Source: Vicinamibacterales bacterium (GTDB taxonomy: Bacteria > Acidobacteriota > Vicinamibacteria > Vicinamibacterales > UBA8438). Taken from it: a DNA stretch of 64,000 nucleotides. The notes beneath the pieces are model-generated. The model saw only the letters and a list, made by a program, of their open reading frames with translations, was not told where the DNA came from and ran no database searches. The first letter of the stretch is position 1. Each line of letters begins with the position of its first letter. The position numbers and the translations under genes were made by a program. The DNA is taken from contig OZ252219.1 of assembly GCA_965249105.1 (NCBI GenBank), positions 4,823,108 through 4,887,107 of the forward strand. The letters run 5' to 3'. Shown piece by piece: positions 14,456-51,029 of the stretch.

Positions 14456-16873
14456 TCACCGTCGCGCGACGTCGGCGACTTGAGCCGAATTCTCCAGCGG
14501 GCCCACGGTGCGCATCTGAAATGGCACGCTTTTCACGATACCGAGAATGAGGGACGAGAAGGAGTTATGGTGCTGCGCGGCCGCGGTCGTGATCCCGCGA
14601 ACGGCCGGCATGTCGTAGTACTCCAGGCCCCGGCCAAGCGCGTAGATCATCATCTTCTCGGTCAAGGTGGCGACGAAGACATCCGATTTCGCGAGCAGCG
14701 CGGCGCGCAAGCCCGCGACACCATCGAAGGACGCCCCGTCCGGCATCTGTCCGGTCGCGTCAACCGGAAGCCCGGCGTCCTTGGTTCGCCATTCCCCCAG
14801 GGGACTGAAATTCTCGAGCGCGAACCCCAACGGGTCCATCACCCGGTGACACGAGGCGCACACCGGGTTCCTGCGATGCTGCTCCATCCGTTGGCGCAGC
14901 GTCCCCTTGAGCTCCGTTGCCTCGAGTGGGGGGACGTCCGCCGGAGGGTTGGGAGGCGGCGCGCCCAGCAGATTCTCGAGCACCCATTTCCCTCGTGTCA
15001 CCGGCGAGGTTCGGTTCGCCTGCGACGTCACCGTCAGAATGCTTGCATGGCCGAGCAGGCCCCGACGATTCTCGTCGGCGACCTGAATCCGTCGGAAATG
15101 ACTGCCGTAGATACTTGGGACCCCATAGTGCCTGGCGAGTCGCTCGTTGACGAAGGTGTAGTCGGCGTCCAAGAAATCCACGACACTCCGGTCCTCACGC
15201 ATGATCGTTTCGAATAACAGTTCCGTCTCGCGTCGCATCGCCTGTCGCAGGTTGTCGTCGAAGTTGGGAAACATATGCGCGTTGGGGTCGATACCCTCGA
15301 CGTTCCGCAACCGCAACCACTGCCCGCCGAAGTTCTTCACGAGTGCTCCCGATCGCTCGTCGGCCAGCATCCGGCGGGTCTGAGCCTCCAGGACGTCGGG
15401 ATCGCTGAGCTCGCCGCTCACCGCCAGTTCGAGCAGCTCGTCATCTGGAACGCTGCTCCACAGAAAGAACGACAGCCGCGAAGCGAGGGTAAGGTTGTCG
15501 ATTCGATATGTATCCCCTGGCGAGAGGTTGGGCGGGTCCGCGACGATCCGGAATAGGAAGTCAGGGCTCGAAATAATGCGCTCCAGGCCGATGCGGATGC
15601 CGGTCTCGAAATCGCCGTCCGCCCGGCCGTGCTGGTAGAAATCCAGCAAGTCGGTAACGTCCGCATTCGTCAAGGGACGACGATACGCCCGCCGCGCCAA
15701 GGTCGCCAAGATTTGCCGCGCACACGACTCCTCAGCTGCATCCCCTGCGGGACGACAGGCAAAGATCCGCTGGCGGCTCGGCGTGTCACCCGGTCCCGTG
15801 GTGTCAAATGGACCGGTGAACGACACTTGGCCGACATACGGGCCAGCGTAGCCTCCCATTCGGGTCAGTCGAAACGACGAGATCCCCGGTGGTCTGAGGA
15901 ACGGCGCGAGGTGATCCTCGAGCTGGCCGGAGGTTGTCTGGATGAAGGTCACAGCCACGTCGTGAAGGCCAGCGTTGATCGGTATACGGATTTCCCAGTC
16001 TGTATTCGCCTGGATATCCGCACCGGGGATCGTGTGCTTGATCGGCTTCTGGTCCATCTTCTCGAGGAAGATCTGCTCGCCGTCGATAGACACCTCGATG
16101 AAGTTCGGCTCTGCCTCCGACTCACCAACCCCGGTGAACGCCTGAAAGCGGATCACGTAGTCGGCGTCAACCGGAAAATAGCGCCGAATAAGGGTGCCCC
16201 CACGAGTGCCGAAGGGAAGCCCCTCGAGCCGATCATCCTGCGACAGATCGGGCGGGACGATGTACGTGTCCCCGTCGGGGGGCAGAGTCACGTCGCCAAC
16301 GGCCACGCGGCTGATTGTGCGCGCGGCAGTCACATACTGATCGAGATGAGTCGGCGTCATCCCGAGGATGCCAGCGATGTTGTCGAAACCGTAGCTCGCG
16401 TCGTCGCGTGGCAGAATCGTGGTGTAGTTCAGCCCCTCGAGCGCCAAGAGGTCTCGGATCGCGTTCGCATACTCGGCACGATTGAGACGGTGCAGCGCCT
16501 CTGTGCGTCCGGGATTCGGATGGGACGCCGCCGCTTGGTCCAGCTTCCGCTCCAACCAGGACGTAAGCGCGTCGTAGACAGCTGGTTCGGGCCGCGGGTT
16601 CCTCGGGGGCGGCATCGCCCCAGCCCGCAGTTTGCGGACGGCTTTCTCGAGCAGTTCGGAGTGCACGTCCATCCGTTCGAGGTCGACACTTTCTAGAGAA
16701 ACGCCAGCGGTCCTGAGCCGATCGCTGTGACACCGGACGCAGTACTGGTCGAGAACGGCTCGGGCGTCAGAGGCAGCGACGATGCTGGCCGGTGACTGCT
16801 CGGCGGTCGCAGAATCGCTTGACGCCACCAGCACCAACGCGGTCGCGAGCACCCAGGGCGCCGTCGTCCTCAC
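14456..16873 (-). CDS. DUF1592-family cytochrome-c protein (second copy)
   Basis: CVRCH, HRLNRAEY, LASRLSFFLWSS, RTSPVTRGKW, CASCH. Confidence 0.9.
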   Translation of the reverse strand: MRTTAPWVLATALVLVASSDSATAEQSPASIVAASDARAVLDQYCVRCHSDRLRTAGVSLESVDLERMDVHSELLEKAVRKLRAGAMPPPRNPRPEPAVYDALTSWLERKLDQAAASHPNPGRTEALHRLNRAEYANAIRDLLALEGLNYTTILPRDDASYGFDNIAGILGMTPTHLDQYVTAARTISRVAVGDVTLPPDGDTYIVPPDLSQDDRLEGLPFGTRGGTLIRRYFPVDADYVIRFQAFTGVGESEAEPNFIEVSIDGEQIFLEKMDQKPIKHTIPGADIQANTDWEIRIPINAGLHDVAVTFIQTTSGQLEDHLAPFLRPPGISSFRLTRMGGYAGPYVGQVSFTGPFDTTGPGDTPSRQRIFACRPAGDAAEESCARQILATLARRAYRRPLTNADVTDLLDFYQHGRADGDFETGIRIGLERIISSPDFLFRIVADPPNLSPGDTYRIDNLTLASRLSFFLWSSVPDDELLELAVSGELSDPDVLEAQTRRMLADERSGALVKNFGGQWLRLRNVEGIDPNAHMFPNFDDNLRQAMRRETELLFETIMREDRSVVDFLDADYTFVNERLARHYGVPSIYGSHFRRIQVADENRRGLLGHASILTVTSQANRTSPVTRGKWVLENLLGAPPPNPPADVPPLEATELKGTLRQRMEQHRRNPVCASCHRVMDPLGFALENFSPLGEWRTKDAGLPVDATGQMPDGASFDGVAGLRAALLAKSDVFVATLTEKMMIYALGRGLEYYDMPAVRGITTAAAQHHNSFSSLILGIVKSVPFQMRTVGPLENSAQVADVARR

Positions 16874-18393
16874 CTCTCCACCTCAAGACCCTTGGCGATC
16901 ATCGCGTCACGGATGATCGCGGCTAGCTCGGGCTGGACGTGGTACGTAATACCCAGGCCAGAGCCTTTCGCAAGGTCCAGCGCCGTTTCGCCGCTCTTCA
17001 TCCTATGGTCGAGCGGCACACCTTCGTCGACCAACCACCTCACGAGACCTTCGGCGCCACGAATGACTGCACCGTGCAGCGCAGATGCTCCCATCCAGTC
17101 GCCTCCGGTGAGGGTCCCGGTCGACGCCGATGCCTCCGCATCGAAGGTGGTCCGGACGTCGTTGCCAAGGGTCTGCAGCAACTGGACAGCTTCGAGCGCC
17201 TCGTCAGGGGTTCCCGGTGATTCGCCAATGGTGTACCCGACTCCTGCGGCTGCCAGGAGCGGGCTGACACCTTGCGTCGTTCCAATGGAAGGGTCGGCGC
17301 CTTTGGTCATCAGAAACCGCATGAACTCCAGGTCGCAGTGCTTCGACGCAATGTAGAACGGCGTGGCGCCGGTGAAGCTGACGCCTGGAAACAGTCCGAG
17401 CGCCATGTGCGGCGGAAAACGCGGGCCGTCGTCCCAGTCGACGCGATCATTGATCTTCGCACCGCGAGTCAGCAGCAGCTCAGCCAGCTCGAGCGTGTCG
17501 ATGTTCCCTGACGGTGTCCTGGGCAGCCAGGGCGACAACCCGCGGTTCCCGGCCCGGCGCATGAAGGCGAGGACGTGAAGTGGACGCCCGTGCAGCGGGT
17601 CGTCGCGGTTCGGATCCGCTCCGCGCTCTAGCAGAAACGCCGCGAGCTCCCAGTGCGCGTTGATCATCGAGAGCACGAGCATGGTCGTGCCATCGGGCGC
17701 AGTCGCGTCGAGGTCGGCACCCTGATCAAGCAGTTCCCGAGTCACGTCGAGGTCTCCGGCCCGCACGGCAAACATCAGGGCGTTCATCCCGGTCCTGGAC
17801 CGTGTCTCTAGATCCGCCCCGGACTCGACGAGCAGGTTCACCGCCGCGCGGTGCCGCTCCGCCGCGGCCCACATCAGTGCGGTTTGGTCCCGGATCCCTT
17901 CCTGGACGTTCAGGTCGGCATCATGGGCCAGGAGTCGTTGCAGCACGTCCACGTGACCGGATCGCGCCGCGATCATCAGTACCGTCTCGCCACTCGTGCC
18001 CCGACTCGTGCTCGGGTCCGCCCCGGCTCGCAGCAGCGCTTCGACGACGGCGACGTGGCCGTTCTGGGCCGCGATCCAGATCGGCGCGATGCCATACCGG
18101 TTTGTCGACGACACCTCCGCTCCGGCCTCGATCAACCGGGTCACGGTGTCCAGGTCACCGTGGTGGGAGGCCCAGTGGAGGGCCGCGGTGCCGTCAGGAC
18201 CGGTCTCGTTCACGTCCACGCCTTGCTCGAGAAGGGTGTCGATCAACGCCCGATCGAGGCGCTTGGCCGCAGTAGTCAGCGAGGTGTCACTCGCGGCCTC
18301 ACCGGCTTCCACCGAGCCAGCCCAGACAGCGAGCGCGAGCACCACACCCCCGCGCAGGCTAGAACGCCGAATCCTCGTGATTCTGCTACCCAT
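16870..18393 (-). CDS. secreted ankyrin-repeat protein
   Basis: Repeated GxTALHWA/TALMWAA motifs; start refined to MGSRIT. Confidence 0.9.
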   Translation of the reverse strand: MGSRITRIRRSSLRGGVVLALAVWAGSVEAGEAASDTSLTTAAKRLDRALIDTLLEQGVDVNETGPDGTAALHWASHHGDLDTVTRLIEAGAEVSSTNRYGIAPIWIAAQNGHVAVVEALLRAGADPSTSRGTSGETVLMIAARSGHVDVLQRLLAHDADLNVQEGIRDQTALMWAAAERHRAAVNLLVESGADLETRSRTGMNALMFAVRAGDLDVTRELLDQGADLDATAPDGTTMLVLSMINAHWELAAFLLERGADPNRDDPLHGRPLHVLAFMRRAGNRGLSPWLPRTPSGNIDTLELAELLLTRGAKINDRVDWDDGPRFPPHMALGLFPGVSFTGATPFYIASKHCDLEFMRFLMTKGADPSIGTTQGVSPLLAAAGVGYTIGESPGTPDEALEAVQLLQTLGNDVRTTFDAEASASTGTLTGGDWMGASALHGAVIRGAEGLVRWLVDEGVPLDHRMKSGETALDLAKGSGLGITYHVQPELAAIIRDAMIAKGLEVER

Positions 18394-18618
18394 CAAATGG
18401 GCCTGGTCTCTTCCTGGGTCTACGCGGCGTGGGCACGCGAGGCCCGCAGTTCCAGAGCCTAGCCCACCAACTTGCAGTATAGACCACCAGCGTGACTCCC
18501 CCTCGGGACCAGCCAGGTCCGTGGTACGCGTTAGGCGGGTCCGTTCTTGGCCGGTTGAACGGGGGTGCGAGCGGGTCTCACGCTCCACAGGCCCGGCTCG
18601 ACGGGGCGAGGCTGTGCC

Positions 18619-20361
18619 CTACTTGTCGTACGGCTCCGTCGCGGTGGGCTGGCCCTGGACATCGACAGCCGTGACGACGAGAAGCGGGAACTCAGCGTCG
18701 TCCAATGAGTCGACCCGCTGGAAGTTCCCTCGAGATGGCTCAACAACGATGTCCCCAACGGCGAAGACAGCGCCCACGGTGAGCAACCCGGTGTCGTTGA
18801 CCATCGGTGGCTCTGGCGGCTCCAGCCCCCGGTCTCGATAGGCCGCACGTAGAAGCTCTGCAGTATGGGGCTGCGCTTTGTAGAAACCGGCGAAGAACAC
18901 GCCGTCCGCGAGCGAGGTCGGCGTCCATCCCAGTACGTTCTCCACGCCCAGCTTTGCGCCATGGTTCAGCAGATACGTCGCGACGCGGTTCCAGCCACGA
19001 TAGGAGGGACCGAACAACGGAGTTTCGCCGTTGTTGTTGACGGCGTTGACGTCGAAGCCAAGTTCCTCCACCAGATACCGCACTGCTGCAAGGGCCTCGG
19101 TTTCGGTACCCGCATCCTCGTTCGGATTGAGCGTCGAGCCGCCTGCGGCCAAAAGCAACGGCGTGTCATTGTCACGGTTCAGGATCCGGGTATCGGCGCC
19201 GTGGTCGACCAGTAACTTCATCATCGGAAGGTCGACGAGCTTCGAGGACAGTAGAAAGGCCGTCGCCCCAAACCTGATCATGCGGTTCCGGTACCCGTCG
19301 GCGAAGCTCTTGTCCATCTGCGCATCGATGTCGACGCCGCTGGCCAGGATTCTTGCTGCGAGCTCCAAACTGTCCAGCGTTCCGGTCGGTTCGGGATTGA
19401 GGGGCCCGAACTTGGCGTTGAGCCGGCGGGTCCAGGCAACCTGATGCAGTGCGGTGTATCCGGGCCCGAGGTTCGGATCCGCCCCTTGGTCGAGGAGGTA
19501 CGCTGCGAGCTCGTAGTGGCGGTTCTCGATGGCGAGGATCAGATTCGCTCGGCCGTCAGGCTTCCCGTCGTTCACGTCGGCGCCGGCCGCGAGCAGCGCC
19601 GCGACCGCCCCGATGTGGCCTTCACGACTCGCCCAGTTGATCGGGGTCAGCTCCCAGCCGTCCAGGTTGACGGCCCAGGTGGGGTCACGATGCGCTCGAA
19701 GGCCGATCGGATCGTTGACCCGCGATATCCGCCCTCCAATCTGAGGCATCTCCGATGGCCCAGTCGACCGCGCGTCGACGTTGGCTTTCGAGCCGGTTGA
19801 CGGATTCCCCTCCTGCACCAATACTTCGATGGCGCCTACGTTGCCCGCGGCCGCCGCGTGCATGAGCGCCGTTTGACCTCGTGCCGATTCGCTGACATTT
19901 GGGTCTGCGCCGTGGCGCAGGAGCGCCCGAAGCGCGGCGGGGCGACCGGCTCGGGCCACCATCATCAGGACTGGCTCGCCATTCACCAGCGAGTTCGGAT
20001 CCTCCCCGGCCTGCAGCAACCGCTCGATGACCCCCGCGTGCCCTTTGTAACACGCGAGCGACAACGGCGTGGCACCGTTCCGGGTCGTCGCGTTCGAGTC
20101 GGCACCGGCATCAAGCAGCAGGTCTGTCGATGTCACGTCGCCGAGATGGGCTGCCCAATGGAGAGCGGTCGTACCATCGAGCTCCGCAGAGTTGGCGTTG
20201 GCCCGCTCAGCCAATAGCGCGCGAACCGCAGCCGCATCACCCTGCCTGACCGCGTCGATCAGTGGGACCTCAGCGGCACCCGTCTGCCCGGGCAAGACAC
20301 CGGTCAGAACGACACAGACACCGACGAGAGAAACGTCCAGGCGACGGCGCAACATTGACAC
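18619..20361 (-). CDS. secreted ankyrin-repeat protein
   Basis: GTTALHWAA, GATPLSLAC, GQTALMHAA; signal peptide. Confidence 0.9.
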   Translation of the reverse strand: MSMLRRRLDVSLVGVCVVLTGVLPGQTGAAEVPLIDAVRQGDAAAVRALLAERANANSAELDGTTALHWAAHLGDVTSTDLLLDAGADSNATTRNGATPLSLACYKGHAGVIERLLQAGEDPNSLVNGEPVLMMVARAGRPAALRALLRHGADPNVSESARGQTALMHAAAAGNVGAIEVLVQEGNPSTGSKANVDARSTGPSEMPQIGGRISRVNDPIGLRAHRDPTWAVNLDGWELTPINWASREGHIGAVAALLAAGADVNDGKPDGRANLILAIENRHYELAAYLLDQGADPNLGPGYTALHQVAWTRRLNAKFGPLNPEPTGTLDSLELAARILASGVDIDAQMDKSFADGYRNRMIRFGATAFLLSSKLVDLPMMKLLVDHGADTRILNRDNDTPLLLAAGGSTLNPNEDAGTETEALAAVRYLVEELGFDVNAVNNNGETPLFGPSYRGWNRVATYLLNHGAKLGVENVLGWTPTSLADGVFFAGFYKAQPHTAELLRAAYRDRGLEPPEPPMVNDTGLLTVGAVFAVGDIVVEPSRGNFQRVDSLDDAEFPLLVVTAVDVQGQPTATEPYDK

Positions 20362-20365
20362 TCCA

Positions 20366-22060
20366 CTAGTCCAGGAGCTCTACTCGGGTAATCCTGGCTG
20401 TCCGCTTGTTCGTCATCCAGAGAACGACCGCCTCGGTCGTCGGGTCGTACGCGATCTTCTTCGTGTCGAACTCCGTCGGCATCTGATACTCGATCACGTC
20501 TCCCGTCCGGGGATCCAGACGCAGCAGACGTTCGGACATATTGCTCGGTGCATAGACGTACCCATTTCTGTCTGGCACCGTTGCGGTGTACGGCGTCGAG
20601 TACTCGGGAACGTTCCACCGTCGAACCTCCTGCGTACGTGTGTCGAACCTGAAGATCTTATCGTTCAGGTACTCTCCGTACCAGAGGCGATCCTCGTCGT
20701 CGATTCGACCACGCCGCGCGCTCAACCCCTCGATCGGAAACCAACTCACCTCGCCCGTCTCGGCATCGACCCCGATCACGCCGCCGGGTCCCCGGTTCGT
20801 GGCCATCCAGGCGTTGCCTTGCGAATCGACCCGGCTATTGCTCGCGTACGGCGATGCGCCCTCGGGCACGTCGTCGCTATAGTCGAAGTTCGCGTCGACT
20901 TCCATCGTATCGGGATTGATACGTGTGAACCCAGTCCAAATCTTGCCGTCTGGGCCGCGGGCCAGGAATTGGCCCCCGGTGCCCTCGACCCGGCTGATTT
21001 CCTCGGTCTCCGGGTCGAACTTGGTCATTACGGTGCCGCTCCCGGAGATCCGCATCGGGAACCACACGTTGTCGTCCAGATCCATCTGCACATCCCGAGT
21101 GCCAGGCACATCGCCTGGGTTCACCGGCGGAAGCTCGTACTCGGTGAAGGTCGCAGTGCTGGGAACCAGCTTGCCGATCATCTGGCGGCTCTCGTCCGTG
21201 TACCAGATGACGCCGTTCGAATCGATATCCATGTCATGCGCCACGGTGCCCGGCGTGGGCAGGTCGTACTCGGTCACGATGACGCGGGTCGCTTGTCCAC
21301 TCGGCCGGGGCAGCGTTTGTAGCTCGTAGTCCCAGGTCTGCTTCCCGCCGCTGAGGTTGGCTGCCGCGAGCAGCCGTGCCAGCTCGGTTTTGGGGATACC
21401 CGGGACGAACCCCCAGTCTGGTGGCGCGAGAAAGGCCTGCTGTCCGGCCTCGGTGTTCTTGACCGCACGACCACGGCGGCCATCGTTACTGGACGCTGCA
21501 CCATCGGGGTAGTACGTGCCCATTCGCTGGATCACCGGCAGGAAACGTTCAGCGGTGTGCCGTGAGCGCATGATCCGCTGATAGGTATGACAGTAGGCGC
21601 AGCTGAGTAGCTGGTGGACGACCTGGCTCTTCTCTTCCGGCGTGGCCGGCATGCTCATCGCCCACTCGCGCGACGAGAGTTGCCCACCAAGATCGGTCGT
21701 TACCTCGAGTTCCAGATCTGTCGGCGCCGGGTGCGCGGCCTCGATCGTCACAGTTCCGGGACCGACCAGGTCGTACCCCACGGCACGTGTTGTGAGTGTG
21801 TACTGGCCTGGCTCGAGATGTGTGCGCGGGAAACGGTAGGTGCCGGATGCGTCGCTGACCACTGACACCGTGTAGATTGAGCCGTCGCCCCGGGCCGTCA
21901 CGACGACACCCTCCATCGGACCTTCAGCGCTCGACGCAACCACGCCGGTCAGCGCGATAGCATCGTCCGATTGAGCACGCACCTGCTCGGACACGACGTG
22001 TACACACGCCAGCACCAGCGCAGCACTCCCGATCGAGAGCAGCTTGGGACCGACCGTCAT
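20366..22060 (-). CDS. carboxypeptidase-regulatory-like domain + heme c + Vgb (streptogramin lyase-like) beta-propeller protein
   Basis: VVSDASGTYRFP, CAYCH, repeated DxxGxIW/VW blades. Confidence 0.8.
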   Translation of the reverse strand: MTVGPKLLSIGSAALVLACVHVVSEQVRAQSDDAIALTGVVASSAEGPMEGVVVTARGDGSIYTVSVVSDASGTYRFPRTHLEPGQYTLTTRAVGYDLVGPGTVTIEAAHPAPTDLELEVTTDLGGQLSSREWAMSMPATPEEKSQVVHQLLSCAYCHTYQRIMRSRHTAERFLPVIQRMGTYYPDGAASSNDGRRGRAVKNTEAGQQAFLAPPDWGFVPGIPKTELARLLAAANLSGGKQTWDYELQTLPRPSGQATRVIVTEYDLPTPGTVAHDMDIDSNGVIWYTDESRQMIGKLVPSTATFTEYELPPVNPGDVPGTRDVQMDLDDNVWFPMRISGSGTVMTKFDPETEEISRVEGTGGQFLARGPDGKIWTGFTRINPDTMEVDANFDYSDDVPEGASPYASNSRVDSQGNAWMATNRGPGGVIGVDAETGEVSWFPIEGLSARRGRIDDEDRLWYGEYLNDKIFRFDTRTQEVRRWNVPEYSTPYTATVPDRNGYVYAPSNMSERLLRLDPRTGDVIEYQMPTEFDTKKIAYDPTTEAVVLWMTNKRTARITRVELLD

Positions 22061-22136
22061 CGTTCTATCGGTGCGGGTGAGCCGGTCGGCTCACCCGCCC
22101 GCTACATGTGCTAGCGCGCCGCCGCGTGAACGTCCT

Positions 22137-25100
22137 TTACCAGTCGAGCGTGGCGGTCCACTTGAAGAACCGTCCACCGAGAATGCCCTGGGGGGACAGG
22201 TAGGTGGCATCGAATACCTGCCGAGACCCCAACACCGGCCGGGCGTTAAAGACATTATACAACTCTCCGGCGGCGATAAGCCGAAGTCCCCCGATGATGA
22301 TCGCGCGGCTCAGCTTCAAGTCCAGTTGCGTGATCCGATCGTCTTGTCGCGTTCGGTTCGGGATGAGGTTGATCTCCGCGGTCACCGGGCACGCGGCACC
22401 GCTCAGCCCAGTGCAGCCAGTCAGGGGGCGCCCCAGCGAGGGCTCCAGATCCACGTTCGGGACGAACAGCTCGGCCCCGATATCGACGCCAGGGCTGGTG
22501 TAGAAGTTCCCGCTGAGCATGAAGTCCTGCGGCAGCGGGTAGAGCGCTTGGAACTTGATCTGCGTCGACTGAGAATTCCAGATGCTGGGCGCCGACCTGC
22601 AGTAGTCGTCGTTGCGGATCGTCGCGAACGGGACGCTCGTAGCGGCGTTCACACCGGGGTCCAGGCTGGATGCGCCGGGGGTGAACGTTCCCGAGGCTTC
22701 ACCGCCGCTCACCTGCGGGAGATTGTTCGCCCAGCACTCATCGTTGACGCGGCGACCAATCGTCACGCCCCCACCTACGTACACTCCGTTCATGAGGCTC
22801 ACGTCGAGAGCGATATCCACGCCGTTGTACTCGAATTTCGGACCGTCGCCTGAGCCTGGGATGTCCTGCCACGGAATCCTCACGATTTCGTTGCGTCCCA
22901 ACGAATCCGCGTTCCGGTCGAAGATGCCGGTGATCACCGCACCGCTGCGGTCACCCAGTCGTGGATCCGTCGGCGCGGTGATGCTACCCACGGCAAAGTC
23001 GGCAGCTGTGAGTGCTCGGTTCCAGTTGTATTGCGTGTTGTGCCAGCTGTTCCGGAAATAGCTGACGCTCAGACTCACGCTGCGAGTCAGCTCGCGCTGG
23101 ACGCCGACTGAAAGCTGATTGCTATACGCTCGATTGCCCCAGCCCGTGTTCCCCTCCCACGGGTTGGTGCTCACCGGTCTACGGAGATCCTCGACACCGA
23201 CGCCGATCGTCGCACCGCACTCGCCATTCGCTGCGGAGACCGTCAGGTCACACTGCGGGATGTAGTCGCCCGTGACTTCGTTACCCGTCTGCGGGGCTCC
23301 GAAGGCACCCGCGGCGGCCGGCCCGTTGTCGAACCACAAACGATTGAGTGTCTCGATACGGGCGGTGGCAGGATCGAGCTCTCGTCCCACGCCTGCCCCC
23401 ATCCCCATCATGTACCGGCCCCACGAGGCCTTGAGGGCTGTCTTGCCGTCGCCCTGGAGGTCATAGACCACTCCCAGCCGCGGCGAGATGTCGTGGTACT
23501 TCGGAATGTCCTTGAGCCCCGGGGACTGCACCTCTTGGACAAACGGCTGATGGACGCTCCCGTCGCTCAGGGTATAGGGATCCGGCACCCCAAGCGTGAC
23601 TGGGTTGGCGAACGCATGGAAGTACTCGTACCGCAGACCGAGGTTGAGCGTCATCCGGTCGATAGTCCAATGGTCCTGCGCAAAGAAAGCGAAGCTGCGC
23701 GTGCGCATGTTGCTGATGATCGGGGTTGCGTACTGGGTGATTTGGAGAGGTCCGCCGGCGGGATTGACCGGTGTCGGGAAGAAGAGGTACGAGATCGGTT
23801 CTCGCGTTGGTGTCCCTTCTGCCTGGTCAACCCGGCCGAACAGCCCGTCGACGCCGACCTTGAAGTTGTGAGTGCCGGTCACATACGCGACCGACGCGCG
23901 GTAGCTGTGCGTGTCGAATGGGCTCCCGACCTCGTAGGTTCCGACCGTTCCATCAACCGGGTTCTGGTTGAAGATGGGGCGTTTCGACAGAGGATCGACG
24001 ATCCGGATACGGCCCGCGCCAACCGGCGCAGGGTCGGAATTCGAGGAAAAGACCTCCTGGAGCACCGACGATACGCCGGCCTGAAACAACAGGTTGTTGG
24101 TGACCGGCGCGGTCCAGCTCGTCTGCGACAACCACATCCCACCACCACCGCCTAGTCGGTCCGTCCCATAACCAAACTCGGCCACCGCCGAGGGCGCGGA
24201 CGGATCTCCAAGCGACGTCGTGAGTTTGCAGCCACACCCTTGCTGCCAGCGCACTGTCTGGGACAGCCTGTGTTTCGGTGCCGCCTGAATCGTGAACCGC
24301 GACCCGTAGTCTTTCTGCCACAGAGCGGTGAACGCCGGACGGGTTCGGTCCTCCTCGTATCGCCAGAAGTCAGTCGATTTGTTGAAGAAGTTGTCGGCTG
24401 CGTTTGATTCGCCGCCCCAGTCTCGGCCTGAGGCATAGAACCACACGCGGTTTCTCACGAGCGGTCCGCCTACGCCGAGACCCAAGTCCCAGACCCTCTT
24501 GTGGAAAAGAGACTCGGTCAGCTGGCCGTTCGACCGGTCGACCACCGAGTCGGGGAGTGCGGACGTGCCGAATCCTCCGGGGTTGGCCGTGAGAAAGCTG
24601 TGAAACGAGAAGACGTTGGCGCCGTCACGCGGGATCATGTTGATGTTGGCGCCCCCGGTGGCGGCGTCTGCGTTGCCACCGCCGATGTCGACCGTGATCT
24701 CCTGAACGCTGATCGTGTTGAACTTCCAGATCCGCATTTGGCCGCCGCCATCGAACAGTTGGATGTTCGTGTTCATGCCGTCATAGGTAGCCCGGCTCTG
24801 TCCGCCCAAGGACCCGTGGACGCTCAGACCGGTGTTGATTTCAGCAAAGGCCCCGCCGACATCCTGGCGATCGGTATTTCCCTGACTCACTCCCAGCATG
24901 GCCTTCCCGAGCCCCGTGTAGTCGCGGGCGCCGGTTGGCAGCGCTTCGAGTGTTTCCAGCGTCTGCGACCGTTGCTCGCGCACGTTGATGACGTCGACCC
25001 TCGGGGTCCCGCTGACCGTGACCGTCTCTTGGACACCACCGACTGCCAGCGTGGCGTTGGCCGTCGTCGCGACGAGGGCTCTCGCCTCGAGACCTTCGAG

Positions 25101-25406
25101 CACGACGGTCGAGAAGCCAGACAGCGAGAACGTAACCGTGTACTCACCGACCGGAAGAGCCGTCAGATTGAACCGTCCTTCGGGACCCGTGGTCGTCTCT
25201 CGGGGCGTCAGCAGACAGTCGCAGTCAGCCAAGACGCCGACACCGGGCATCAGGCCGCCGGTCTCATCTTCGACACGGCCGGTCAGCTGAGCGTTCGGCT
25301 GGGCCCATGCCGCGGGTGCACCCAGGGCGAGCAGCGTCACGGCCACTACGATCGTCCTGGTGAGTGTTCTTTGAGATCTTGCTCGGACTACGTTTCTGTG
25401 TCGCAT
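22137..25406 (-). CDS. TonB-dependent receptor-like (Oar-type) outer-membrane protein
   Basis: Signal peptide, carboxypeptidase-regulatory-like domain, plug-like region, TLNLGLRYE, C-terminal aromatic (ATLDW); start refined to MRHRN. Confidence 0.85.
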   Translation of the reverse strand: MRHRNVVRARSQRTLTRTIVVAVTLLALGAPAAWAQPNAQLTGRVEDETGGLMPGVGVLADCDCLLTPRETTTGPEGRFNLTALPVGEYTVTFSLSGFSTVVLEGLEARALVATTANATLAVGGVQETVTVSGTPRVDVINVREQRSQTLETLEALPTGARDYTGLGKAMLGVSQGNTDRQDVGGAFAEINTGLSVHGSLGGQSRATYDGMNTNIQLFDGGGQMRIWKFNTISVQEITVDIGGGNADAATGGANINMIPRDGANVFSFHSFLTANPGGFGTSALPDSVVDRSNGQLTESLFHKRVWDLGLGVGGPLVRNRVWFYASGRDWGGESNAADNFFNKSTDFWRYEEDRTRPAFTALWQKDYGSRFTIQAAPKHRLSQTVRWQQGCGCKLTTSLGDPSAPSAVAEFGYGTDRLGGGGGMWLSQTSWTAPVTNNLLFQAGVSSVLQEVFSSNSDPAPVGAGRIRIVDPLSKRPIFNQNPVDGTVGTYEVGSPFDTHSYRASVAYVTGTHNFKVGVDGLFGRVDQAEGTPTREPISYLFFPTPVNPAGGPLQITQYATPIISNMRTRSFAFFAQDHWTIDRMTLNLGLRYEYFHAFANPVTLGVPDPYTLSDGSVHQPFVQEVQSPGLKDIPKYHDISPRLGVVYDLQGDGKTALKASWGRYMMGMGAGVGRELDPATARIETLNRLWFDNGPAAAGAFGAPQTGNEVTGDYIPQCDLTVSAANGECGATIGVGVEDLRRPVSTNPWEGNTGWGNRAYSNQLSVGVQRELTRSVSLSVSYFRNSWHNTQYNWNRALTAADFAVGSITAPTDPRLGDRSGAVITGIFDRNADSLGRNEIVRIPWQDIPGSGDGPKFEYNGVDIALDVSLMNGVYVGGGVTIGRRVNDECWANNLPQVSGGEASGTFTPGASSLDPGVNAATSVPFATIRNDDYCRSAPSIWNSQSTQIKFQALYPLPQDFMLSGNFYTSPGVDIGAELFVPNVDLEPSLGRPLTGCTGLSGAACPVTAEINLIPNRTRQDDRITQLDLKLSRAIIIGGLRLIAAGELYNVFNARPVLGSRQVFDATYLSPQGILGGRFFKWTATLDW

Positions 25407-25508
25407 GTGAACAGGCTCCCCTCTCGGGTGATAGAAAGCACGAAACGACGGCAATTTGAGTATGAGAATGTACCCGGCTGTCATGTCAATCCGATAGTGA
25501 AAGGGTGG

Positions 25509-26681
25509 CTATAGGTCAGATGCTTCAGACCAGCTGTACGCGTAGCCCACGTCTTCGAGCGCGATCGCCTGCGTCGTCATCTTCAGTGGTCGGAACGTGT
25601 CGATCATCACCGCAAGCTCCTCGGTGCGCTCTTTCCCGATCGAGCCTTCGTACAGCCCTGGGTGCGGACCGTGTGGAATACCGTTCGGGTGGATCGTAAA
25701 CGCTGCCGGCTCGATTCCCTTGCGCGACATGAATTTTCCGGCGACGTAGTACAGCACCTCATCCGAGTCGACGTTGGAGTGGTTATAGGGCGCTGGAATC
25801 GAGAGAGGGTGGTAGTCGAAAAGCCGAGGCACGAAGGAACACAAGACGAAGCCAGGTCCCTCGAACGTTTGATGCACTGGTGGCGGCTGATGTACGCGAC
25901 CGGTGATCGGCTCGAAGTCGCTGATGTTAAAGGCATACGGCCAGAGGTGCCCATCCCACCCGACCACGTCCAGTGGATGATGGCGGTAGTGATAGCGGGC
26001 GATTCGGCCACGCGCCTTTACCCTGACCTCGTATTCACCTTCTTCATCATGGGTGACGAGAGTGTCTGGTGGACGGATGTCGCGCTCGGCGTAGGGGGCA
26101 TGTTCGACGAACTGCCCGTAGTTGTTGAGGTAGCGTTTTGGCGGTTCGACGTGGCCACCGCTGCTTTCGACGACGAGCATCCGCTGCGCCACGCCGTCAT
26201 CCGGGAGAATCCGCCACAGGACGCCGGTCGGAATCACCAGGTAGTCGCCCGGACCGTACTTCAAAGTCCCGAACTGACTCTCCAGCACGCCTGAGCCGTC
26301 GTGGACGAAGATCACCTCGTCGCCCTGCGCGTACCGATACCAGTAGCTCATGGGCTCAACGGGCCTGACCACCGAGATGCACACATCGTCGTTGGCCAGC
26401 AGTGGCACGCGTCCTCCGACCGCATCCCCGCTCGGGGTGAGCTCAATCGTTCGCAGGAGGCGGTGCCGAACGGGGCCTTGTTCGGCGAAAGGAATCTCGA
26501 CGCTGCACCCGTCCTCTATGCGCTGAACCTCGGTGGGGGGACGGAGGTGATAGAGCAGCGACTGAATCCCGGTGAAGCCGCGAGTGCCCATCAGCTCCTC
26601 GTGGTACAGTGAGCCGTTGGGCTGTCGAAACTGCGTATGACGCTTGTGCGGAACCGTCCCGAGCTTGCAGTAGTAGCTCAT
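25509..26681 (-). CDS. hmgA: homogentisate 1,2-dioxygenase (short type)
   Basis: PHKRH, HQPPPVH, HSNVDSDEVLYY, HPxGIPHGPHPG, ELAVMIDTF. Confidence 0.9.
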   Translation of the reverse strand: MSYYCKLGTVPHKRHTQFRQPNGSLYHEELMGTRGFTGIQSLLYHLRPPTEVQRIEDGCSVEIPFAEQGPVRHRLLRTIELTPSGDAVGGRVPLLANDDVCISVVRPVEPMSYWYRYAQGDEVIFVHDGSGVLESQFGTLKYGPGDYLVIPTGVLWRILPDDGVAQRMLVVESSGGHVEPPKRYLNNYGQFVEHAPYAERDIRPPDTLVTHDEEGEYEVRVKARGRIARYHYRHHPLDVVGWDGHLWPYAFNISDFEPITGRVHQPPPVHQTFEGPGFVLCSFVPRLFDYHPLSIPAPYNHSNVDSDEVLYYVAGKFMSRKGIEPAAFTIHPNGIPHGPHPGLYEGSIGKERTEELAVMIDTFRPLKMTTQAIALEDVGYAYSWSEASDL

Positions 26682-26766
26682 CGCCACCCCATCCTCACCG
26701 CGGCATCTACGATGTTGTCGAGCATACAGGTTACAACGTTTCGGGCCGCGAATCGCCGAGGCCGTT

Positions 26767-26782
26767 TGGCACGGTTTGAGCT
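26767..26782 (+). promoter_or_regulatory. possible sigma-54 (-24/-12) promoter for the fahA operon
   Basis: TGGCACGGTTTGAGCT has GG-N10-GC spacing; -12 element imperfect. Confidence 0.35.
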
Positions 26783-26785
26783 GTC

Positions 26786-27691
26786 GTGACAACTCGGGTG
26801 GGAGTCGAATCGGCCGTGCGAAGTCTCCTCGAGTCGGCGGTTGACTACGCGGGGATGTTCCCTCCCGCGAAGCTCACGCTCACAGAGGCGGCGAGCCAAT
26901 ACGCGAGCGCTCACGCCGGAATGCACAGCTGGTTGCTGGGGCGATTCCTCCTTTCCCTCGGGAGGCTTGAGGATTTCGGAGACGTGGTGGAGGCCTCAAT
27001 GCCCGCACGGGGCAGCTCAGTGTGGCCCGTAGGCGTGATTGCGACGGACGACCGGCTGGGGCAACTCGACGCAATCCAGCGATTCAATGAACGATGGACC
27101 GGCTCGCTGAGTGTGGAGGCGGTGGAGATCGCACCCCTATCCCGGTCCAGGGTTGGCGAGGTGGCCGGACAGGTGCCGGAGGGCGTCGACGTGTACTTCG
27201 AAGTCCGTCCAGACGAAGATGTCGGCACCTACCTCGAGGTGGTCGCAGCCGCCGGCGCCGGCGCGAAGATCCGCACGGGGGGAGTCACCGCCGATGCCTT
27301 TCCCAGCACGAGTACCCTCGCGGAGTTCATTGCGTCCTGCGCCAACGCCCGAGTGCCGTTCAAGGCCACTGCCGGCCTGCATCACGCCCTGCGAGGCCCC
27401 TATCCGCTTACGCCGTCGTTGGACAACACGACCACCATGCATGGTTTCCTCAACCTATCTGTGGCGGCGGCGCTCGTGCAGGTGGAGCAGGCGGACCTGA
27501 GCGAGGTCCGTGCGGCGCTGGACGAAACGTCTACTGATGCGTTCAGGTTTCGGTCTGGTCAGCTGACGTGGCGCGATCGCACTCTCGCCGCCGCGAACCT
27601 TATCGAGACCCGCCAACGCTCCTTCAACTCGTTCGGCTCGTGTTCGTTCGATGAGCCGGTCGCAGACCTCGAAGCATTGGGGATGCTGTGA
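26786..27691 (+). CDS. conserved hypothetical enzyme co-transcribed with fahA
   Basis: VDYAGMFPPA, KIRTGG, FKATAGLHH, HGFLN, SFGSCSFDEP; GTGA overlap with fahA; start uncertain. Confidence 0.75.
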   Translation: MTTRVGVESAVRSLLESAVDYAGMFPPAKLTLTEAASQYASAHAGMHSWLLGRFLLSLGRLEDFGDVVEASMPARGSSVWPVGVIATDDRLGQLDAIQRFNERWTGSLSVEAVEIAPLSRSRVGEVAGQVPEGVDVYFEVRPDEDVGTYLEVVAAAGAGAKIRTGGVTADAFPSTSTLAEFIASCANARVPFKATAGLHHALRGPYPLTPSLDNTTTMHGFLNLSVAAALVQVEQADLSEVRAALDETSTDAFRFRSGQLTWRDRTLAAANLIETRQRSFNSFGSCSFDEPVADLEALGML

Positions 27692-29004
27692 CGCGACCTG
27701 TCGACGCGACCCATGACCCGACTCTCCGCAGCTGGGTCGAATCGGCCAACCAATCGGGTGCCGACTTCCCGATTCAGAATCTCCCGTTCGGGATCTTTCG
27801 TCGCTCGGGCGCCCATGAGAGGTGTCGAGTCGGTGTTGCGATCGGTGATCAGGTGGTCGACCTTGCCCAGTGCGGTGAGAGTGGGCTCCTCGAAGGACTG
27901 TCCCCGCAGCTGGTTTCGGCGACTTCGGCGTCCTCTCTCAACGCTCTCCTGGCGGCCGGGCCTGGCGCTGCCTCGGACCTTCGGCGGCGACTGAGCACGA
28001 TTCTGGATGCCAACGCACCAACCCCTGAACCGCGAATCCTCGTCTCGCTCGCGGAGGTGGAACTGGGGCTCCCCGTGGATGTCGGTGACTACAGCGACTT
28101 CTACGCCTCGATCTTCCACGCGACGAACGTTGGCAAGCTGTTTCGCCCCGACAACCCTCTGTTACCGAATTTTCGACACGTACCGATCGCGTATCACGGG
28201 CGAACGTCCTCAATCATTGTCAGCGGTACCGAGGTCACTCGGCCGTGCGGCCAGTCGAAGCCGGCCGACGCGGACCGTCCGTCGTTTGGGCCCTCCCAGC
28301 GTCTGGACTACGAGCTCGAGATCGGGTTCTACGCGGGTTCTGGCAACTCGCTTGGCCGGCCGGTGCCGATCGATAAAGCTGAGGACCATGTCTTCGGCCT
28401 GTCTTTGCTCAACGATTGGTCGGCACGGGATCTTCAGCTGTGGGAGTACCAACCACTCGGCCCGTTTCTGTCCAAGAGCTTCGCGACCAGCGTTGCGCCA
28501 TGGGTCGTAACCCTGGACGCCCTCGCGCCGTTTCGGTGCCCGGCGTTTGTTCGGCGGGACGATGATCCGCAGCCACTACCCTATCTGTCCTCCACCCGAA
28601 ACACGACAGCGGGTGGTCTCGACCTCAAGGTGGAAGCGTTGCTGCGCTCGGCCGAGATGCGTCGCCAGGGCCTGGACCCGTACCGGGTCAGTGCAGGTTC
28701 GACTCGGGAGACGTTCTGGACCGTGGCGCAGATAGCGGCGCACCACACGAGCAACGGGTGCAACCTTCGCCCAGGCGATCTGTTTGCGAGTGGTACCGTC
28801 TCCGGGTCCGAAGAAGGCTCGGAAGGATGCTTGCTTGAGAAGACCAAGGGCGGCACCCGCCCGATCGAGCTGCCGACCGGAGAGCAACGCCACTTCCTTG
28901 TCGACGGTGACGAGGTCATTCTGCGTGGGTATTGCGAGCGCGAGGGGTATACGCGAATCGGGTTGGGCGAATGTGTTGGCGTGGTCCTCCCGGCCCCAGC
29001 TTGA
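27688..29004 (+). CDS. fahA: fumarylacetoacetase
   Basis: FPIQNLPFG, DYSDFYASIFHATN, YHGRTSS, LDYELE, NDWSARD, GPFLSKSF. Confidence 0.95.
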   Translation: MTRPVDATHDPTLRSWVESANQSGADFPIQNLPFGIFRRSGAHERCRVGVAIGDQVVDLAQCGESGLLEGLSPQLVSATSASSLNALLAAGPGAASDLRRRLSTILDANAPTPEPRILVSLAEVELGLPVDVGDYSDFYASIFHATNVGKLFRPDNPLLPNFRHVPIAYHGRTSSIIVSGTEVTRPCGQSKPADADRPSFGPSQRLDYELEIGFYAGSGNSLGRPVPIDKAEDHVFGLSLLNDWSARDLQLWEYQPLGPFLSKSFATSVAPWVVTLDALAPFRCPAFVRRDDDPQPLPYLSSTRNTTAGGLDLKVEALLRSAEMRRQGLDPYRVSAGSTRETFWTVAQIAAHHTSNGCNLRPGDLFASGTVSGSEEGSEGCLLEKTKGGTRPIELPTGEQRHFLVDGDEVILRGYCEREGYTRIGLGECVGVVLPAPA

Positions 29005-29021
29005 CCGGTAACTGAACAACC

Positions 29022-30359
29022 GTGACTACCATCAACGTCGCCGAACTTATCGACACGAGCGGTCTCAGCCGCTTTCAGAAGACGCTGATCCTCCTGTGCG
29101 GTCTCTGCCTGGTCATGGACGGCTTCGACGTCCAGATGATGGGATACGTGGCACCGGCGATCATCGAAGACTGGGGTTCTTCAACCTCCGAGATCGGACT
29201 GGTGATCAGTATCGGCCTCCTCGGCGTCATGCTAGGTGCTCTCATCTTCACGATGGTCGCCGATAGGATCGGACGGCGCCCGGTCCTGATTGGGGCGACC
29301 TTCTTCTTCTCCATCATGATGATCGTCACTGCGCAAGCGACGTCAGTACGGGAGTTGCTTATCCTTCGCTTCATCACTGGCATCGGCCTTGGCTGTGTAG
29401 TTCCGAATGCGACGGCCCTGGCCGGCGAGTACAGCCCCCGACGATTGCGCGTCACCGTCATGATGATCGTCTCGGTCGGTTTCACCGCCGGTGCGGCCTT
29501 CGGGGGCTTTGTCTCGGCCTGGCTGATTCCGAATTTCGGCTGGCGTTCTGTCTTCTACTTCGGCGGGGCCGTCCCGTTCGTCCTCGCCATCCTGATGACG
29601 GTGTGGGTCCCTGAGTCGCTCCAGTTCATGGTCTTGCGTGGTAAGAACCGCGGGCAGGTTGTCCGCTGGCTCAAGCGCATCGCTCCCTCGGCCCCCGTTG
29701 ATGGGGCCGAGCTCGTGGTGAACGAGAAGAGTCGAGGCGGCGTTCCCGTCCTGCACTTGTTCCGGGACGGGAGGGCCTTGGGAACGCTCCTCCTGTGGGC
29801 CGTCAACTTCACGAACATCCTCGACCTGTACGCGTTGTCGGCGTGGATCCCGACGATCGTCGAACGGGCCGGGTACACGACATCCACGGCTGTCCTCATC
29901 GGCGCCACGATGCAGTCAGCGGGAACGGTGGGGACATTTGGCCTGGCTTGGCTCATTGCGCGGCGCGGGTTCGTAGCTGTGCTCGGCGTGAGCTTCGCCA
30001 TCGCAAGCCTGAGCCTGGCTGTCACAGGGCCCTCGCTTTCATCGCTTGTCGCCCTGGTCGTGGTCGTCATCATCTCCGGGTGGTGTATCGTGGGCAGCCA
30101 GCCTGGTATCAACGCCCTTTCTGCCACGTTCTATCCGACGTCGATACGTGCAACGGGAATCGGCTGGGGCCTGGGGATCGGTCGCCTGGGCGGGTTCTTT
30201 GGCCCGTGGGTAGGAGGGCAGCTGCTTGACCAGTGGTCACCAGACGCGCTCTTTCTGCTGGCCGCCATACCGGCGCTCCTGTCGGCGGTGATCATGTTCA
30301 CGCTGGGAAACGTCCTGCCGTCGCGGCAGGTGGGCAAAGCGAGCGTGGAGGCCGCGTGA
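29022..30359 (+). CDS. MFS aromatic acid:H+ symporter (AAHS, PcaK/GenK-like)
   Basis: DGFD, ADRIGRRP, EYSPRRLR, RATGIGW.LGIGRLG. Confidence 0.9.
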   Translation: MTTINVAELIDTSGLSRFQKTLILLCGLCLVMDGFDVQMMGYVAPAIIEDWGSSTSEIGLVISIGLLGVMLGALIFTMVADRIGRRPVLIGATFFFSIMMIVTAQATSVRELLILRFITGIGLGCVVPNATALAGEYSPRRLRVTVMMIVSVGFTAGAAFGGFVSAWLIPNFGWRSVFYFGGAVPFVLAILMTVWVPESLQFMVLRGKNRGQVVRWLKRIAPSAPVDGAELVVNEKSRGGVPVLHLFRDGRALGTLLLWAVNFTNILDLYALSAWIPTIVERAGYTTSTAVLIGATMQSAGTVGTFGLAWLIARRGFVAVLGVSFAIASLSLAVTGPSLSSLVALVVVVIISGWCIVGSQPGINALSATFYPTSIRATGIGWGLGIGRLGGFFGPWVGGQLLDQWSPDALFLLAAIPALLSAVIMFTLGNVLPSRQVGKASVEAA

Positions 30360-30778
30360 GCCCCCGACCGGGACGACCGTCGTCAATTCGCGCCCTCGCT
30401 GCGGGAGTCCTGGCGCTGACTGCAGCCCCGCCGATGGGCGCCCACCACTCCATCCTGCCATTCGACGGCACCCAGGCGACGACCGTGCACGGAGTGGTGG
30501 CGAGGTTCGTTTGGCAGAACCCACATGCGCATATCTATCTCGATGTCACGAACGAACAGGGTGACGTAGAGCAGTGGGCGATCGAAAGTGAGGGTGCCAA
30601 CGGGTTGCGCAGGCTTGGCTGGACGAAGGATGTGATTAGACCGGGCGATCGGGTGACGAGCATGGGGGCGCGCGCGAAGAACGGCGCCCCGATCATGCGG
30701 TGCCAGGCGCTCGTGTTGGGGGACGGGCGGCGTCTAGCTTGCCAACTCGAGATTGAAACACCATTGAGGAAGGGATAG
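30356..30778 (+). CDS. DUF6152 family protein
   Basis: Signal peptide-AHHS...WQNPHAHIY; GTG overlaps the MFS stop. Confidence 0.8.
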   Translation: MSPRPGRPSSIRALAAGVLALTAAPPMGAHHSILPFDGTQATTVHGVVARFVWQNPHAHIYLDVTNEQGDVEQWAIESEGANGLRRLGWTKDVIRPGDRVTSMGARAKNGAPIMRCQALVLGDGRRLACQLEIETPLRKG

Positions 30779-30817
30779 AGTCGGCCAGGTCACACCCGTG
30801 GCCAGCCCAGTGGCAAG

Positions 30818-31633
30818 ATGGAGCCCTCCGTGAACCGGCGTGTCGCAATGGCGATCGTTCTCTCCTTGGCGGTGGGAGCCCTCGCGCAGAGCGCATGCGG
30901 GAATGCAGCAACGGGCGATGGCATGGCGGCGGACTCGCCGCTGCGCACGTCTGACGGCCATCCCGACTTTCAGGGGATCTGGCAGGTTCGCAACACCGCT
31001 CACTGGGATCTGCAGCATCACGCCGGCAGCGACAACATACCCGCGGGTCTTGGCGTCGTCGTCGATCCGCCGGATGGACGCATTCCGTACCAGGAGTGGG
31101 CGCTCGAGCAAAAGCAGGCGAACTTCGAAGACCGCGACACACTCGACCCGCAAGAGAAGTGCTACCTGGCCGGCGTCCCGCGAACGATGTATCTGCCGTT
31201 CCCGTTTCAGATCTTTCAAACTGACGAAGAGGTCGTGGTCTTCTCGGAGTATGTCCATACATGGCGCTGGCTCCCGCTATTCGACCTTCCACGCTATCCC
31301 GGGTATGAATCGTGGATGGGAGACCCGCGCGGGCACTGGGAGGGAGACACGCTTGTGGTTGAGTCGATCGGCTTCAACGGTCAAACGTGGCTCGACCACG
31401 CCGGCGACTTCCACAGTGACGCCCTGGTCGTGACCGAGCGGCTTACCCTCGCCGACGCCGACACGATCACCTACGAAGCGACGATCGAGGATCCGACGGT
31501 GTTCACGCAGCCGTGGACGATCCGTATGCCGATCTACCGCCACCGTGACATGGATCAGATCCTCGAGTACGAATGCTATCTATACGCGGAAGATGAGGGC
31601 CGGCCGATCTTCGGTCGGCATCCGGAAAACTAG
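30818..31633 (+). CDS. uncharacterised secreted lipoprotein, paralog 1
   Basis: PDFQGIW, PDGRIPYQ, KC..GVPR, GHWEGDTLVV, EDP..FTxPWT, EYEC. Confidence 0.8.
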   Translation: MEPSVNRRVAMAIVLSLAVGALAQSACGNAATGDGMAADSPLRTSDGHPDFQGIWQVRNTAHWDLQHHAGSDNIPAGLGVVVDPPDGRIPYQEWALEQKQANFEDRDTLDPQEKCYLAGVPRTMYLPFPFQIFQTDEEVVVFSEYVHTWRWLPLFDLPRYPGYESWMGDPRGHWEGDTLVVESIGFNGQTWLDHAGDFHSDALVVTERLTLADADTITYEATIEDPTVFTQPWTIRMPIYRHRDMDQILEYECYLYAEDEGRPIFGRHPEN

Positions 31634-31645
31634 TGGAGCGCCCTC

Positions 31646-32518
31646 GTGAGTCGTAAAGCGAGATTCGTTGGTGGTACGGCCGCGGCATTCACACTTGTCT
31701 CACTGGTTCTCATGTCGGCCGGGGGACAGGACACCGAAGCTCCAGAGCTGTTCGGTGGCTGTCCAAGCGATTCTGTCGCGTTCCACGAATGCGCGGTAGA
31801 AAAGGCCAAGACCTTCGACCCGCCTCGAACGCCGGACGGTCAACCCGACATGCGCGGATACTGGCGCGGCCACCACAATGGCGCCGCGTTCGACATCGAG
31901 CCCGGCGAACGGTCATTCGCGCTGCAGCAAACGCTCGGTGTGATCGTGGATCAGCCAGACCGACGTATCCCCTATCAGCCTTGGGCGCTGGCTCGCAGAG
32001 ACGAGCTCCGCGAACAGCTGTATCTCGACCCCCAGGCGCACTGCGCTCCATCGGGATCACCGCGAAAGAACTTCACGAACTACGGCTGGCGGATCATCCA
32101 GCTACCGGAACACTTCCTCTTTGTCTACGAATCGATGCACGACTATCGGATCATTCCGACCGATGGCCGTGCCCACCTGCCAGAGACCGTCAAGCTGTGG
32201 CATGGCGATCCGCTGGGGCACTGGGAGGGCAACACGTTCGTCGTGGATTTCACCAATCTCAACGGCAGGCACTGGTTCGACATGTCAGGAAATTTTCAGA
32301 GTGAGAACATCCACGTCGTCGAGCGCTATACGCTGATCGACCCGGACACGATTCACTTCGAGGCCAGGATCGAGGATCCGACCATCTACACCAGTAGCTG
32401 GACGCTGTCGTTTCCCTTCGTTCGGAACAACGAGGAAGGCTACTACCAGCTCGAATACGCCTGTCACGAGGGCGAACGCGACCTCCAACATCTGATGCCA
32501 GATGCCGACTCGCATTAG
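31646..32518 (+). CDS. uncharacterised secreted protein, paralog 2
   Basis: Same motif series as 30818. Confidence 0.8.
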   Translation: MSRKARFVGGTAAAFTLVSLVLMSAGGQDTEAPELFGGCPSDSVAFHECAVEKAKTFDPPRTPDGQPDMRGYWRGHHNGAAFDIEPGERSFALQQTLGVIVDQPDRRIPYQPWALARRDELREQLYLDPQAHCAPSGSPRKNFTNYGWRIIQLPEHFLFVYESMHDYRIIPTDGRAHLPETVKLWHGDPLGHWEGNTFVVDFTNLNGRHWFDMSGNFQSENIHVVERYTLIDPDTIHFEARIEDPTIYTSSWTLSFPFVRNNEEGYYQLEYACHEGERDLQHLMPDADSH

Positions 32519-43617: not shown

Positions 43618-43965
43618 TCACACAGGCGTGAGCTGACGAAGCAGGCGCTCAGTCATCCGCAGCGACAACGTCTCCATTTCCACAACGATTCGGTCTAGCT
43701 GTCGGCCGTTCTCGATCCAGTCCCGGACACGCTCGGCTTGCTGCTCGGTGAGACGGACGGTGACGGTCTTGCCGCGGACCTTGCGGGTCCACTGATAGTA
43801 CGGCCCGTGTAGCTGCGGGGGCGTCGCTTGGCAGCGGCAGTTCGGCTTGCCGCACGGCATGAAACGTTGCACGAGGCTGCCACGTCGAAGCAATCCCACC
43901 TCAGCGACGGTGCGCTTGAGCGCGTCGTAGCGCTGCGTGTCGGTTGTTGGGTCACGGGTGGGCAT
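43618..43965 (-). CDS. DUF6788-like passenger protein
   Basis: RGSL...CGKPNCRC...HGPYYQWT...GKT. Confidence 0.8.
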   Translation of the reverse strand: MPTRDPTTDTQRYDALKRTVAEVGLLRRGSLVQRFMPCGKPNCRCQATPPQLHGPYYQWTRKVRGKTVTVRLTEQQAERVRDWIENGRQLDRIVVEMETLSLRMTERLLRQLTPV

Positions 43966-44028
43966 GTCGTGCCATTCGGTCTAGCAGTTGTTATACTGCT
44001 AGACCTGGCCCCAGGAGTCAAGAAGAAA

Positions 44029-46338: not shown

Positions 46339-46401
46339 GTCGTGCCATTCGGTCTAGCAGTTGTTATACTGCTAGACCTGGCCCCAGGAGTCAAGAAGAA
46401 A

Positions 46402-50966: not shown

Positions 50967-51029
50967 GTCGTGCCATTCGGTCTAGCAGTTGTTATACTGC
51001 TAGACCTGGCCCCAGGAGTCAAGAAGAAA

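Follow-up and report, generated by a model that had tools for sequence, protein, structure and literature searches.

How does maleylacetoacetate reach fumarylacetoacetase (FahA) in a bacterium that encodes homogentisate 1,2-dioxygenase (HmgA) and has no maleylacetoacetate isomerase gene (maiA)? The question is raised by a Vicinamibacterales bacterium (GCA_965249105.1), in a 64,000-nt stretch of contig OZ252219.1 that was analyzed as a whole and is called the window below. An earlier note on this DNA had described hmgA as divergent from a gene without assigned function (26786-27691, here X), fahA and a transporter gene of the aromatic acid:H+ symporter type, an arrangement that the open reading frames match (Table 1), and had proposed X as a glutathione-independent isomerase or hydrolase acting on maleylacetoacetate. 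The isomerase half of that proposal gains support from genomic context, from which substrate and reaction are deduced: X is probably a maleylacetoacetate cis-trans isomerase that needs no small-molecule thiol. That X acts as a hydrolase is unlikely, since FahA has been retained next to X and is even found fused to it. FahA of this type requires the trans isomer, as the human and P. putida enzymes do.

X stands in the place of maiA

The genome forms a single contig, 97.9% complete, and absences were tested over its whole length. The lack of maiA, of an MDMPI-type isomerase and of hppD, first remarked within the window, holds genome-wide: neither maiA nor MDMPI_N gave a single match, no hppD scored above the cut-off, and phhA, gshB and deoC were not found either.

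Among 82 X loci chosen by similarity, 71 had fahA, which in 65 lay immediately downstream of X, the other neighbors being hmgA (35 loci), hppD (27), acetoacetyl-CoA synthetase (11) and phhA (9). Because these loci had been picked by similarity, even samples of phyla were also drawn. Within 120 genomes of one phylum, X occurred in 15 and long fahA in 17; both were found in 14 and were adjacent in all 14, while hmgA was present in 28 genomes, including 14 of the 15 with X. Analysis of 200 Actinomycetota genomes gave ten with X, all ten adjoining fahA, and X was absent from the five further fahA-bearing genomes that were checked. X therefore adjoins long FahA in 24 of the 25 X genomes of the two samples together. 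The earlier note had made its proposal depend on linkage to hmgA and fahA, and this linkage is tight in the selected loci and in the phylum samples alike.

Gene fusions point the same way: the 34 long X homologues comprise 14 X-FahA, seven acetoacetyl-CoA synthetase-X and one HmgA-X fusion. On Priestia megaterium plasmids, the order hppD-X-fahA-hisC-hmgA-permease constitutes a full tyrosine pathway in which X is the sole unassigned gene, and in Rhodococcus hmgA-X-fahA is accompanied by a monooxygenase and CoA transferases.

The phylogenetic profile against maiA, set beforehand as a possible refutation, showed complete exclusion, with maiA above the cut-off in none of 50 X genomes. The only genome with maiA in the 120-genome sample has hmgA and no X. 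Pseudomonadota were sampled via plasmid records: of 252 records with long FahA, approximately 190 belong to this phylum and none of these carries X; for Streptomyces (11) and Priestia (6), the long-FahA and X searches gave identical plasmid counts. Co-occurrence is given as counts and without P-values, since related genomes are not independent. X thus occupies the genomic slot of EC 5.2.1.2: it accompanies hmgA and fahA where maiA is missing.

The family is large and nameless. X matches no Pfam or NCBIfam family, and searches of PDB, Pfam, NCBIfam and Atlas by sequence returned no named relative; one Atlas cluster bears the automatic name "transaldolase family", without Pfam support. Homologues fill over 6,000 clusters (5,813 at 50% identity), all hypothetical where named, and X also lies in plasmid records of Streptomyces, Priestia, Pseudonocardia, Rhodococcus, Nonomuraea and Kovacikia. 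No match was obtained in viral contigs, and no publication assigning a function to the family was found. In a further recurrent fusion, X follows a CAAX protease-like (Rce1) domain (P0265-P0268, P0138).

Predicted structure and conserved residues of X

The model of X (pLDDT 94.2, pTM 0.92) is a beta/alpha (TIM) barrel in which an insert follows strand 7. Its six best matches among solved structures are all deoxyribose-phosphate aldolases (DERA, the product of deoC), with Z-scores of 13.7-15.1, root-mean-square deviations of 3.0-3.7 and 192-218 aligned residues, headed by 5c2x_A (15.1, 3.5 and 217, respectively), and the next family reaches a Z-score of 12.4. In a profile alignment with DeoC, the residues D20, E139, K161 and K193 of X are in register with D16, E141, K167 and K201 of E. 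coli DERA, whose numbering was checked on NC_000913; both of these aldolase lysines are catalytic. When 9,028 sequences (391 X and 8,637 background frames) were ranked with the DeoC hidden Markov model (HMM), X accounted for 46 of the top 100 matches, mostly over strands 5-7. The KxxTG and FKxxxG motifs are similar in the two families. With K161 on strand 6 (159-163) and K193 on strand 7 (192-195), X displays the TIM barrel, the invariant strand-6 lysine and the strand-7 partner lysine of class I (Schiff-base) aldolases.

X nevertheless differs from DERA by its low identity (8-16%), its additional invariant residues R163, H199, H200 and C286, its insert and its context of aromatic catabolism, and it matches neither TIGR00126 nor PF01791. 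As the host has no deoC, X was considered as a stand-in for that gene; this was rejected because 47 of 50 X genomes hold a separate deoC.

The residues listed as invariant are D20, E114, E139, K161, R163, K193, H199, H200, N223, R276, S285 and C286. Over 338 X sequences, E114, E139, R163, K193, H199 and H200 occur in all, and D20, K161, R276 and C286 in 337; nearly all of these residues, C286 among them, are retained by divergent homologues from actinobacteria and Bacillota. The motifs picked out by the earlier note, GLHH (197-200), HGFLN (219-223) and GSCS (284-287), are indeed present and conserved. C286 sits after strand 8, where FGSCS of X, matched by eye and not from an alignment with FGASS of DERA, puts it at the place of S238, a residue that contacts the substrate in DERA (PMC8403123).

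Proposed mechanism

In its action X most likely resembles MaiA, and in its architecture a class I aldolase. Known isomerases act through addition of a thiol to the double bond of the maleyl group. In X, this thiol is suggested to be its own, because the hosts span glutathione, mycothiol and bacillithiol types and gshB is missing in 51 of 61 X genomes. We tentatively regard Schiff-base formation with addition of the enzyme's own cysteine as the likeliest mechanism, a scheme whose chemistry and residue roles we infer. As in class I aldolases, K193 and acidic residues would tune K161, which would form an iminium at the substrate's C4 ketone; C286 would add reversibly to the conjugated carbon, allowing the C2-C3 bond to rotate, and elimination and hydrolysis would then free the trans product. 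In E. coli DERA, crotonaldehyde bridges Lys167 and Cys47, a dead end of the same two-step chemistry (PMC6244999), whereas C286 of X lies at another position than Cys47.

Within the module, the MFS transporter would import homogentisate or a close analogue, HmgA would open the ring to form maleylacetoacetate, X would isomerise the latter to fumarylacetoacetate, and FahA would hydrolyse this product to fumarate and acetoacetate.

Comparison with known isomerases

MaiA (HmgC, GSTZ1; EC 5.2.1.2, TIGR01262), a zeta-class glutathione S-transferase (GST), takes the same slot between HmgA and FahA, and X is proposed to follow its logic of thiol addition, rotation and elimination. In contrast, the predicted barrel of X is unrelated to the GST fold, no TIGR01262 match was obtained, most X hosts are without glutathione (gshB being absent from the present genome too), and the two genes never occur together in the genomes searched. 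X is most likely a non-homologous replacement for MaiA, with no need of glutathione, mycothiol or bacillithiol.

The DinB-superfamily, mycothiol-dependent maleylpyruvate isomerase NCgl2918 from C. glutamicum (PMC5790435) resembles X, as proposed here, in being an enzyme other than a GST that catalyses the cis-trans isomerisation of a maleyl compound in bacteria lacking glutathione. It has, however, a helical DinB fold, belongs to the gentisate pathway and needs mycothiol, while X is modeled as a beta/alpha barrel and has no MDMPI_N or DinB match in Pfam. Hagedorn and Chapman reportedly described in 1985 a glutathione-independent maleylacetoacetate isomerase activity in Gram-positive bacteria, to which, to our knowledge, no gene has been assigned. 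The reaction is the one proposed here, likewise without glutathione, and X occurs in Priestia (Bacillus) megaterium, Rhodococcus, Pseudonocardia and Streptomyces.

Alternative explanations

Several observations weigh against the isomerase assignment or its aldolase-like chemistry. X is at times without a neighboring fahA (L123, L125), X-fahA has no hmgA in its vicinity on some Streptomyces plasmids, and one fahA-linked actinobacterial X (L145:391-2412), possibly a degenerate copy, is devoid of K161, H199 and C286. Genomes with hmgA and long fahA and neither X nor maiA exist (L120, L121, L163), so the maleylacetoacetate step can be met otherwise, in line with the thiol-dependent non-enzymatic bypass in mice announced by the title of PMC133921, as it is cited in PMC10970868. 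With respect to the fold, Foldseek gave generic TIM-barrel matches only, hhalign of X against DeoC was weak (P 0.04, probability 1%) and not significant alone, and the best DeoC HMM score for X was a non-significant 9 bits. The host also possesses bshC and ten DinB_2 genes above the cut-off, unlinked to the cluster.

Together with the aldolase-like active site of X, the mouse bypass, the genomes lacking both X and maiA, and the bshC and DinB_2 genes would also suit an enzyme that repairs or detoxifies side products (maleylacetone, fumarylacetone, succinylacetoacetate, succinylacetone) through lysine decarboxylation, hydration or retro-aldol cleavage, isomerisation then being non-enzymatic or carried out with bacillithiol by a DinB protein whose gene is unlinked. 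Such a role is improbable, as it leaves unexplained both the exclusion of maiA and the position of X between hmgA and fahA, and no DinB gene figures among the recurrent X neighbors. We also consider it rather doubtful that X isomerises maleylacetoacetate by other chemistry, using a metal at E114, E139, H199 and H200 or a small-molecule thiol, a variant counted within the probability given to isomerisation: the two invariant glutamates and two histidines and the weak sequence support for descent from DERA would favor it, but the two lysines, on strands 6 and 7, line up with those of DERA, and the thiol type varies between hosts.

The fusions to acetoacetyl-CoA synthetase and the invariant cysteine of X, a feature of maleate isomerases, could also mean that X cleaves maleylacetoacetate into maleate and acetoacetate, or that it isomerises free maleate after hydrolysis of the cis compound by FahA; direct hydrolysis of maleylpyruvate does exist in gentisate pathways. 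Direct hydrolysis would, however, make FahA redundant, yet FahA is the most constant partner of X; moreover, maleate isomerase or hydratase genes are not among the recurrent X neighbors and maleate lacks a ketone with which the lysines could react, which makes this explanation quite improbable. It is very unlikely that X has no catalytic activity and acts as a partner or maturation factor of long FahA. Its linkage is tighter to long fahA than to hmgA, and translational coupling and fusions would agree with such a partnership, but the invariant polar residues are grouped near the ends of strands, as in an active site, and the approximately 190 Pseudomonadota plasmid records have long FahA without X.

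Apart from X, a second candidate route past maleylacetoacetate was encountered. Most hmgA genomes without X, and likewise most of those in which maiA is missing too, encode a short FAH protein and a flavin-reductase-like protein (PF01613) (L132-L143; e.g. L132:4165-6908). In cyanobacterial clusters (L002, L004, L006, L007, L011, L015; e.g. L004:2169-3074), another unnamed gene of ~300 aa, with a weak DUF3865 match (E 0.004), lies between hmgA and acetoacetyl-CoA synthetase.

Organization of the locus and its host genome

Table 1. Features of the hmgA/X-fahA locus (positions in the window)
Feature	Position	Strand	Basis
hmgA, short-type homogentisate 1,2-dioxygenase, 390 aa	25509-26681	-	Pfam HmgA_N/C; PDB HGD matches; conserved ligand residues
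Divergent intergenic region, 104 bp	26682-26785	.	Sigma-54-like motif 26767-26782, not conserved relative to two related loci
X, 301-aa DERA-like TIM barrel, candidate maleylacetoacetate isomerase	26786-27691	+	Predicted fold, conserved residues
fahA, long (eukaryote-like) fumarylacetoacetase	27688-29004	+	TIGR01266, 526 bits (cut-off 375)
Aromatic acid:H+ symporter-like MFS gene, candidate homogentisate importer	29022-30359	+	TIGR00895/PcaK nearest

The product of hmgA has the HmgA domains (HmgA_N, E 8e-11) and the His/Glu/His iron ligands of homogentisate dioxygenases, and it matches such enzymes in PDB (E 5e-10); it falls below the TIGR01015 cut-off because it is of the short type. H264, H301, E308 and H337 are invariant in an alignment of 24 long- and short-type HmgA and correspond to the known iron and catalytic ligands. 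The gene, on the minus strand, starts with ATG at 26681 and ends at 25509; a TTG start at 26792, which belongs to a mechanical open reading frame overlapping X, was discarded as not likely. Also rejected was a later start of X combined with a sigma-54 promoter at 26767-26782, given that two related loci (L129, L131) conserve the N-terminal codons from 26786 onward and not the motif. The start of fahA overlaps the stop of X (GTGA), and fahA is translationally coupled to X.

The same four-gene layout recurs in these two other assemblies, with the MFS gene at the same position. X was not found in 18 genomes of the same family as the present one, and the module is therefore patchy; its GC content equals that of the genome. 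The transporter scores best with TIGR00895 (365 bits, E 3e-109) and PcaK (327 bits, E 2e-97), both below the cut-off. In this genome, the module stands without an upstream pathway: no pathway-type hydroxylase for homogentisate supply was detected in it, and its two best FAD monooxygenases are PRK06185-like and unlinked to the cluster. Import of the substrate by the MFS protein, as first suggested in the earlier note, is a plausible and the simplest reading, consistent with the lack of hppD, phhA and such a hydroxylase; alternatively, an unrecognised hydroxylase may exist, or a substituted homogentisate may be the substrate. CoA transferases resembling those beside X in Rhodococcus are encoded elsewhere in the genome.

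On the 3′ side of hmgA, after a gap of 25 bp and on the same strand, genes for an outer-membrane beta-barrel receptor, a Vgb-lyase-like propeller and an ankyrin-like protein occupy 16870-25484; they are probably outside the module, since the neighbors differ in the two related loci. Downstream of the MFS gene (30356-32518), a DUF6152 gene is accompanied by two unnamed genes (271 and 290 aa), as in both related loci. Farther along the window, three transposase open reading frames of 446 aa (DDE_Tnp_1 and DUF772) lie within 9 kb (43828-45168, 46201-47541 and 50829-52169), upstream of serS (54187-55476).

Significance

X may, on a more guarded view than that of its mechanism alone, combine three attributes: an isomerase derived from a class I aldolase, a cofactor-free catalysis by a lysine iminium and its own cysteine, undescribed for EC 5.2.1.2, and identity with the gene behind the Gram-positive glutathione-independent activity of the 1980s. 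Were X the proposed isomerase, a gap would be filled in the tyrosine and phenylalanine catabolism of thousands of genomes from Acidobacteriota, Cyanobacteriota, Planctomycetota, Gemmatimonadota, Actinomycetota, Bacillota and Chloroflexota. A family of approximately 5,800 clusters, now annotated as hypothetical, would receive a name, and X would represent a natural case of an aldolase scaffold used for iminium catalysis.

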